Source of the DNA: a virus | Taxonomy: Duplodnaviria > Heunggongvirae > Uroviricota > Caudoviricetes | Virus record (IMG/VR): IMGVR_UViG_2534682157_000011 | Span: 1 to 8,008 of that record | DNA length: 8,008 nt | Strand: one strand, 5' to 3' | Part shown: piece after piece, positions 1,251-1,529 of the stretch | Layout of the letters: each line of letters begins with the position of its first letter | How positions within the stretch are numbered: the stretch's first letter is position 1 | Notes under the pieces: generated by a model | Told to the model about the DNA's origin: nothing | Seen by the model: only the letters and a program-made list of their open reading frames with translations | Database searches by the model: none | Made by a program: the position numbers and the translations under genes

Positions 1251-1339
1251 ACAAAACAGAGAAGAACACCTGCGGTGGCAGCCGCCCGGATGGATTGGGT
1301 TATGAGCCCGTCGTCCGGTGATGCTCTTCTCTGTTTTGT
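1251..1339. repeat. 15-bp perfect inverted repeat flanking a 59-bp GC-rich insert, in the 5' leader of the 840-1202 gene
   Basis: ACAAAACAGAGAAGA at 1251-1265 and its exact reverse complement TCTTCTCTGTTTTGT at 1325-1339. On the leftward transcript the upstream arm is immediately preceded by CGCTCTTTTTACA (reverse complement of 1337-1349), which resembles boxA (CGCTCTTA / TGCTCTTTAACAA). Confidence 0.8.
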
Positions 1340-1529
1340 AAAAAGAGCGGTACCAGCCGGAAGCAAGTGTACAAACTGGTACTGCCAAAGCAGTGGCTGT
1401 TGTGGTGACCGGTGCTGATCTCCGGCTTGCGGTTATTTCAGACTCTCACGGGCGTTTGATTGCCCCGCCGAACAGCTCTTTTCCGCAATAGCTGCAATGT
1501 CTTTCGCGCATCAGCCTGCGCATTCACCA

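Follow-up and report, generated by a model that had tools for sequence, protein, structure and literature searches.

We identified a structured RNA of about 100 nt, here called element B, in an 8,008-nt stretch of viral DNA (the window; positions 1 to 8,008 of the IMG/VR record IMGVR_UViG_2534682157_000011, class Caudoviricetes). We propose, at a probability of roughly 0.55, that element B is an RNase III processing site that separates a structured leader and a small RNA from the mRNA of yfdP, the first gene downstream. The window represents the immunity region of a lambdoid prophage of the SfV / ST64B / mEp460 / cdtI type. Leftward of its cI-like repressor gene, about 780 nt are free of genes, followed by yfdP and then yfdQ, and the same order of cI, long non-coding leader and yfdP is found in ST64B, phiNP, LLS, Eeyore and 118970_sal3. 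Element B lies within this untranslated leader, which belongs to the repressor-controlled early-left operon. Folding showed that the entire 668-nt leader is abnormally structured (z = -6.7).

The element came to attention through an inverted repeat described in an earlier note on this DNA. Both the sequence and a repeat finder confirmed two perfectly reverse-complementary arms, 1251-1265 and 1325-1339, that stand 59 nt apart, and the repeat finder lengthened them to 1251-1275 and 1315-1339 at 84% complementarity. A separate scan identified this 15-nt repeat as the longest perfect inverted repeat of the window with a loop of up to 100 nt. The repeat is real and far above chance: with the same loop limit, 300 simulations of the window by a first-order Markov model gave at most 13 nt (mean 9.5), never 15. 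Its gene-near end, at 1251, sits 48 nt upstream of the yfdP ATG, as the note had placed it to within a few nucleotides. The note's expectation of a hairpin in the leftward leader was also borne out, as the minus-strand RNA from 1349 to 1237 folds at -51.2 kcal/mol, compared with -27.0 +/- 3.2 kcal/mol for its shuffles (z = -7.6; 0 of 200 as good). In this fold the repeat forms the core of a 25-bp helix, P1 (1344-1320 paired with 1270-1246), which closes a three-way junction holding two hairpins, P2 and P3.

More than 100 distinct versions of element B were gathered by BLAST and pattern scans from phages of Escherichia coli, Shigella, Salmonella, Klebsiella and Citrobacter; a 15-base pattern scan of genome contigs gave matches that were nearly all at chance level. 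In an alignment of 28 diverse homologues (A1), the modelled P1 and P2 pairs were 94.8% paired (93.2% for P1 alone), as against 40-52% when the partners were slid. Compensatory changes occur at five P1 pairs, for example at 19/116 (GC in 19 sequences, CG in 9) and at 25/110 (AU in 17, GC in 9). P2 is the part of element B best conserved in sequence, with invariant columns in A1. Its compensatory changes were found in variants gathered via the 3' arm alone, so that P2 was left unconstrained (L251, L253, L269), and include GGG/CCC to GUG/CAC, CCGG/CCGG to CCGU/ACGG, and CCGGG/CCCGG to CCAGG/CCUGG. The hairpin P3 is hypervariable in length and sequence among relatives, ranging from 14 to about 40 nt. 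The conservation of the arms with compensatory changes, which the note had suggested as a check, thus holds for both P1 and P2 across the phages of five genera.

The comparison indicates that element B acts as an RNA of the leftward strand, because its G-U pairs arise only when the minus strand is read as RNA (U29-G106 in 25 of the 28 sequences) and because the covariance model built for the element (R1) scores 121.6 bits on the minus strand of the window and 42.7 bits on the plus strand. A coding role was considered and rejected. The lengths of element B (111, 112, 114, 115, 130, 134, 135 and 138 nt) differ by amounts that are not multiples of three, and every frame is broken or lacks a start in several variants. 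A peptide frame through P2 (KSITGRRAHNPIHPGG) is open in several phages, but many variants carry a TGA or have no start in it, and in at least 10 of them the TGA lies within the core. Several annotated or predicted proteins do overlap the element. In the window, an open reading frame (ORF) in frame with yfdP (840-1388, minus strand; 182 amino acids from a TTG) extends back through element B; a longer-protein version of it is annotated in phage 118970_sal3 (L008 1095-1628), and small "hypothetical proteins" are annotated across element B in mEp460, cdtI and O157 genomes. These are likely annotation artefacts.

Element B is present in one copy per locus in 68 loci, and model R1 found no copy in the rightward operon of these loci. 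It always heads the leftward genes; in loci that have YfdP, the match to this protein lies a short way downstream and on the same strand. The spacing is nearly fixed: in 86 of 89 such loci the match begins at the first residue of YfdP, and the protein starts 69 nt past the start of the P1 3' arm. Other phages have different first genes, with different spacers, after the element. A search for a partner protein by co-occurrence returned YmfL (Phage_CP76) in most loci, but this gene tracks the phage type and is not specific.

RNase III cleavage, which the earlier note had listed as its second alternative, emerged as the best-supported mechanism, given the long conserved helix and the precedent of homologous stems in the dicBF operon of the Qin prophage. 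Two properties looked for in an RNase III stem were found. First, the helix reaches about two turns (at least 20 bp) and has been kept in evolution, with 25 bp in the window and 21-27 bp in the family. Second, it has its frame and mismatch positions in common with the Qin stem, as seen in two further alignments (A2, A3) and in the folds. The family extends beyond element B. A second long stem of the leader, element A, was recognized through the repeat finder, folds, alignments and pair counts, and encloses two hairpins with T-loop-like loops (CUGG-UUCAAUU-CCAG and GUCCG-UUCGAUU-CGGAC). Counterparts of element A with the same frame occur in ST64B, phiNP, LLS and Eeyore, and the stem upstream of dicF in Qin is another. 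Altogether, 14 elements (elements B and A of the window and members from phiNP, ST64B, LLS, Eeyore, four P1-like phage-plasmids and Qin) have in common the frame ACAAC-n-nn-n-AAGnGCA ... UGCnCUU-n-nn-GUUGUG, and all 14 fold to 21-27-bp helices interrupted at the same two positions. The ten members that are not of the B type are 98.3% paired, with compensatory changes in 10 of 18 pairs. A covariance model built solely from these ten (R2) gave matches sitting exactly on helix P1 of element B, in ST64B (E = 0.014), in L084 (E = 0.031) and in the window (1252-1338, E = 0.21). R2 detects element B weakly because of the large apical insertion.

Elements in phage-plasmids of the P1 type combine features of both kinds. 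Model R1 scores P1-like elements at 32 and 29 bits, and these carry the B-type P2 core (ACGGG-nUCAUAU-CCCAAUCUAC) between A-type flanks. Two parts of the leader of the window recur in P1-like phage-plasmids beside tRNA genes, immediately past trnT and trnI(CAU) (L279, L280, L281): 1655-1840, at about 82% identity, and 1398-1534, whose minus strand is 97.8% identical to a stretch beside trnT. The counterpart region in phage P1 is the leader of the C1-repressed ban operon, where the order is Oban / P1ban, a "dicF-like region", trnA, trnT, the elements, tci, trnI (CAU) and ban. In pNORD58_2, the 1.1 kb that follow trnT form a tandem array of long stems, which are all framed by CACAAC…stem … stem…GUUGUG(A/G)UGAAUGC and include two elements with the B-type core and one with a perfect T-arm. 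Related sequences were found in P1-like phages, D6, SJ46 and lambdoid phages, and in Klebsiella, Cronobacter and Salmonella phages. Phage P1 has two ORFs, plp and upl, annotated on the opposite strand over an array of such structured elements, and these may be spurious.

The Qin dicBF operon provides the functional precedent for this family. Its RNase III sites go back to Faubladier 1990 (cited in 10.1101/2023.04.14.536235 and PMC5069750). Cleavage by this enzyme yields the 5' end of a 190-nt DicF species (10.1101/2023.04.14.536235) and, on read-through transcripts, the 3' end of a 72-nt DicF (PMC5069750). With DicF placed at 1501-1553 of the Qin locus (L283), and by arithmetic from the published RNA lengths, the 5' end of the 190-nt species would fall at about 1364, within the conserved UGCGC|UU box that the A-type stem carries on its 3' arm, at a distance of 11 bp from the helix base. 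By the same arithmetic, we infer that the 3' end of the 72-nt species lies at 1572|1573, on the 5' strand of a 20-bp helix and again 11 bp from the base. This helix begins just past the DicF terminator, which is the layout in which element B follows a hairpin that we call T.

Hairpin T and its U tract look like an intrinsic terminator in the fold, and this arrangement recurs: a stable hairpin with U4-7 directly after it precedes element B in 54 of 55 distinct upstream contexts. In the close relative L010 (8010-8232), STnc100 (RF02076) is matched over its full length by the RNA ending at the U tract next to element B, at 43.1 bits, just below the Rfam gathering score of 47. The function of STnc100 is unknown (PMC12370729). 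The stretch in the same position in the window, running from the 3' arm of element A to the U tract of T, is too diverged to give an Rfam match. At its base, the T stem is similar to the DicF terminator (UUGGCGGUAyCAGUUU ... GCCGCCCUUUUU), and the DicF model (RF00039) found no match in the relatives. Two further features of this module were noted. Relatives carry a conserved single-stranded UUGCUGUGUGUAGUCUU just 5' of the variable terminator stem, which has the look of a small-RNA seed. In the window, the minus strand carries GUUGUGGUGA at 1525-1534, where element A has its 3' end, and the exact complement UCACCACAAC at 1391-1400, a short way upstream of T; pairing of the two, in place of the base of the element A stem, could enclose the STnc100-like region, and Qin has an equivalent 20-bp helix. 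Leaders with fewer parts also exist. In L084 (about 2220-2330) the promoter is directly followed by element B, and L253 has the promoter, T and element B without element A; the leader modules are therefore separable.

Processing by RNase III would proceed as follows. Transcripts that read through hairpin T would fold the 21-25-bp P1 helix, and RNase III would cut both of its strands near the middle. The predicted cuts lie at 1264|1263 on the 3' arm, because of the homologous UGCnC|UU box of the Qin stem, and at about 1325|1324 on the 5' arm. The pairs left between them are G-C and A-U, in agreement with the rule published for E. coli RNase III in vivo, by which the two positions between the cuts are paired, usually with a G-C pair (PMC6212723). 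Cutting would detach the structured leader together with the STnc100-like small RNA, the latter with a 3' extension of about 20 nt, and the yfdP mRNA would then begin at a new, defined 5' end some 60 nt ahead of its AUG. The top of P1, with P2 and P3, would be released as an apical fragment of about 61 nt.

Several points weigh against this proposal. The Qin cuts were put on their stems by arithmetic, not from a mappable published coordinate. The link between element B and the Qin and A-type stems is weak by the independent model R2 (E = 0.014 to 0.21), and otherwise rests on arm sequences picked by eye. Most family members have one or two mismatches in P1, with position 21/114 unpaired in 21 of the 28 sequences of A1, and the full pairing of the window is a minority state. 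In L084, where element B directly follows the promoter, there is no small RNA to separate. Furthermore, cutting by RNase III does not require a specific apical sequence, and conservation is nonetheless highest in P2 (ACGGG-nUCAUAw-CCC-AAUCyAC). A further function or partner of P2 is therefore likely.

What this further function might be is suggested by the P2 loop. Its core is common to lambdoid phages and P1-like phage-plasmids, which otherwise have little in common. The 13 nt of GGGCUCAUAACCC (1297-1309, minus strand) in P2 are identical to what we take to be the anticodon stem-loop of the E. coli initiator tRNA (tRNA-fMet), and the loop CUCAUAA on GGG/CCC has the YUNR form of a U-turn, which is typical of recognition loops. 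The P1-like relatives have GGG-(G/U)UCAUAU-CCC at this place. It is possible, though on balance unlikely, that the functional unit is the apical domain of P2 and P3, as a released stable small RNA or as a site at which a host factor binds the anticodon-like loop, with P1 only presenting or excising it; such a role is compatible with RNase III cutting. The conservation of P2 among unrelated phage types of the same hosts, the U-turn form and the placement of related elements among tRNA genes in phage P1 speak for it. The loop is not strictly invariant (UUCAUAA, GUCAUAA, CUUAUAA and CCCUAA also occur), no complementary target was found in the window, and neither ARAGORN nor the Rfam tRNA model found anything tRNA-like in the window or, for tRNA genes, in the leaders of 40 related loci. 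No pseudoknot partner of the loop was found by eye. A candidate target in trans, TTATGAGCC at the start of a 164-aa gene, was tried and rejected; the search gave only the complement of element B itself. As a second role alongside RNase III cutting, an excised small RNA or a host-factor site in the apical domain is a serious possibility. In a bolder form, for which we would offer slightly longer odds, element B and its relatives on P1-like plasmids would be cassettes for an RNA of about 60 nt that is excised by RNase III and acts in trans through its anticodon-like loop. Such an RNA could work as a kissing-loop regulator, or as a decoy or competitor directed at some host or defence factor that recognizes loops with the anticodon CAU, and the conservation of P2 across unrelated phages of the same hosts would then be explained.

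Control of translation offers another use for a folded leader, which might hide or expose the yfdP ribosome-binding site. The minimum-free-energy fold of the window pairs GCUCUU, upstream of P1, with GAGGAGC of the ribosome-binding site, and relatives likewise have pyrimidine tracts before element B and purine-rich ribosome-binding sites after it. However, any U tract can pair with any ribosome-binding site, and the GGAGAA flank beside P1 competes for the same tract. The element also stands upstream of different first genes at different spacings, and an operator would leave the conservation of P2 unexplained. We regard this reading as improbable.

We judge no better the chances of a cis-acting antiterminator RNA that binds RNA polymerase directly, as the put sites of phage HK022 do. 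The general likeness is clear: in both cases a structured RNA is encoded in cis in the early leader of a lambdoid phage without N, and element B is conserved, modular and at the head of the early-left operon, even lying directly after the promoter in L084, like putL. No N homologue has been reported in this phage group, a put-like mechanism has been suggested for it, and the early-left control of phages without N is not known (PMC12315714). Nevertheless, we found no sequence similarity, as alignment of putL and putR with the leader scored 23 and 15, within the range of the shuffles (mean 17, maximum 25-26). The architecture differs as well; the HK022 put sites consist of two stem-loops of about 70 nt without a closing helix (PMC9378689). 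The rightward operon has no second copy of element B, and the element lies after the nearest terminator, not before it, in 54 of 55 contexts. Additionally, put action is not known to need Nus factors. The near-identical mEp460, on the other hand, takes its name from a collection described as Nus-dependent (PMC11893012).

The interpretation favored by the earlier note was a nut-type site, at which a boxA (CGCUCUUUUU) and a hairpin would recruit NusB/NusE and an N-like protein to make RNA polymerase resistant to termination. The part of it that placed an RNA hairpin in the leftward leader stands, as does the boxA-like CGCUCUUUUUACA, which is found on the minus strand from 1349 to 1337, immediately 5' of the helix; the nut-like combination does not, and stem, copy number and boxA all argue against it. 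As in lambda nutL, an early-left leader position goes with a boxA-like heptamer, the window string having GCUCUUU in common with boxA. Moreover, the near-identical mEp460 carries the mEp name of a Nus-dependent collection, in whose description mEp460 itself is not named (PMC11893012). However, the boxA-like string (1349-1340) belongs to hairpin T, of which it comprises the 3' strand (…ACCGCU) together with the U tract. Its letters change in step with the 5' strand of the T stem across relatives, whose stem sequences differ widely: the GCUCUU core is limited to one sublineage, and CGUCC, CGCCC, CGACC or GCACU stand in its place elsewhere. L084 and L057 have neither a U tract nor a boxA-like string ahead of element B. 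The 8-nt core YGCTCTTW occurs twice in the window, both times on the minus strand and never on the rightward strand, with 1.04 occurrences expected; two or more matches arose in 56 of 200 shuffles, so the resemblance is not above chance. In place of a 15-nt boxB there is a 21-25-bp stem with a three-way junction of about 100 nt, and each phage has one copy, without a counterpart of nutR. Among the eight window proteins scanned, none matched an N-type antiterminator family of Pfam. The nut reading fails because each testable feature that defines such a site is missing, and we consider it highly improbable.

Least probable of all is a feature of the DNA itself (a protein-binding palindrome, as the note had also allowed, a cruciform or a miniature inverted-repeat mobile element): despite the perfect terminal inverted repeats, and a family spread over many phage types with tandem arrays in which the set of members differs from one relative to another, the minus-only G-U pairs, the strand asymmetry of the R1 scores and the variable length of P3 contradict a DNA palindrome, the orientation relative to the yfdP operon is fixed, the 1-5 copies per genome all occupy prophage leader positions, and neither target-site duplications nor empty sites were seen.

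RNase III processing hairpins are already known in phage early leaders, in Qin dicBF and in the lambda N leader. For lambda, Kameyama et al. (1991, listed in PMC11893012) reportedly described such a site between nutL and N, in the leader of N, and processing there changes the expression of the first gene. The likeness lies in a large hairpin within the pL leader that closely precedes the first early-left gene; lambda has nutL upstream of its site, whereas the upstream neighbor of element B is the terminator that ends a small-RNA-like module. The Qin stems are alike in their frame, in their mismatch positions, in standing in a repressor-controlled early leader of a lambdoid prophage and, for one of them, in directly following a small-RNA terminator. 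In contrast, they lack the P2/P3 apical domain of the B type, and the helix after the terminator in Qin is a long-range pairing that closes an STnc100-like region, while element B is a compact three-way junction.

Element B is widespread. Of 5,426 complete E. coli genomes, 2,492 (46%) carry it with at least 90% identity, and it is present in Shiga-toxin phages; positions 800-2000 of the window match Stx2a phages and phage 1720a-02 at 99.4-99.7% identity and mEp460 at 97.6%. In genome records the element is either unannotated or covered by a spurious "hypothetical protein". Rfam scans of the window and of 1150-1950 returned no family on 1237-1349 at E values up to 10 other than chance-level matches. 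The small RNAs AgvB, AsxR and Pas, considered as candidates, occupy other genomic positions, and they are in Rfam without a match here. Element B defines a candidate new RNA family with a conserved apical domain without known function. Its importance lies in its position: in lambdoid phages without N, early-left transcription either stops or goes on there. Its family tie to the Qin dicBF stems predicts specific cleavage positions. These findings also suggest a general layout in which early leaders are assembled from RNA modules that can be reused, with a small RNA and its terminator standing between two processing stems.

Table 1. Features of the leftward leader and the immunity region in the window.
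Feature	Positions	Strand	Remarks
Element B	1237-1349	-	Three-way-junction RNA with immediate flanks; extent from covariance model R1
P1, 5' strand	1320-1344	-	Contains perfect arm 1325-1339; terminator U tract 1340-1344 pairs weakly with GGAGA
P1, 3' strand	1246-1270	-	Contains perfect arm 1251-1265
P2, CCGGA-cgac-GGG-CUCAUAA-CCC-aauccau-UCCGG	1286-1318	-	7-nt loop at 1300-1306
P3, GCGG-CUGCCA-CCGC	1272-1285	-	Short hairpin
3' flank GGAGAA	1245-1250	-	Conserved; GGUGAA in related A-type elements
Hairpin C, CGACC-UUGCAG-GGUCG	1223-1238	-	Between element B and the yfdP ribosome-binding site
Hairpin T, GGCAGUACCAG...CUGGUACCGCU	1346-1386	-	Followed by U tract 1340-1344; looks like an intrinsic terminator
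STnc100-like positional counterpart	1340-1538	-	3' arm of element A to U tract of T
Element A, CGCAAC-G-AU-GAGAGCAUUG ... CAAUGCUCUC-A-GC-GUUGUGGUGAAUGCG	1525-1662	-	Long stem of the same family
yfdP	840-1202	-	First gene past the leader; annotated yfdP; GAGGAG ribosome-binding site 1209-1215
Inferred leftward early promoter pL	1864-1892	-	-35 TTGCAT 1887-1892, 17-nt spacer, -10 TATCTT 1864-1869
cI-like repressor	1981-2673	-	
cro-like gene	2771-3031		
CII-like YmfL gene	3024-3575		Pfam family Phage_CP76

The promoter pL in Table 1 was read by eye among operator-like palindromes (1882-1902 and 1911-1931); a scan with a consensus promoter made no call there. Hairpin C recurs in relatives with different stems, and its loop keeps to the form nUGCAG/UGGCAG (UUGCAG, UGGCAG, GUGCAG). 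It may be a recognition hairpin for a protein or an RNase. Just downstream of cI, a G+C-rich hairpin (AGCCACCAGAAGGTGGCT) at 1945-1965 is flanked by runs of T and A, and counterparts with other stems occur in ST64B, phiNP and Eeyore; this is probably the cI terminator.

Rightward of the immunity genes, the window carries three tandem antirepressor modules and an O-like replication gene. The modules (3718-6429) are three tandem copies of a unit of about 850 bp. In each copy, an ORF with the domains Phage_pRha and Ash is accompanied by matches to isrK (60-62 bits) and to C4 antisense RNA (82-84 bits), and by a weak one to the c4-a1b1 target. From these matches, the region looks like a triplicated, antisense-controlled antirepressor cassette. 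Within the O-like replication gene, four imperfect direct repeats of GTGCAGGAGATTCAC-like units at 6912-7040 are probably origin iterons.

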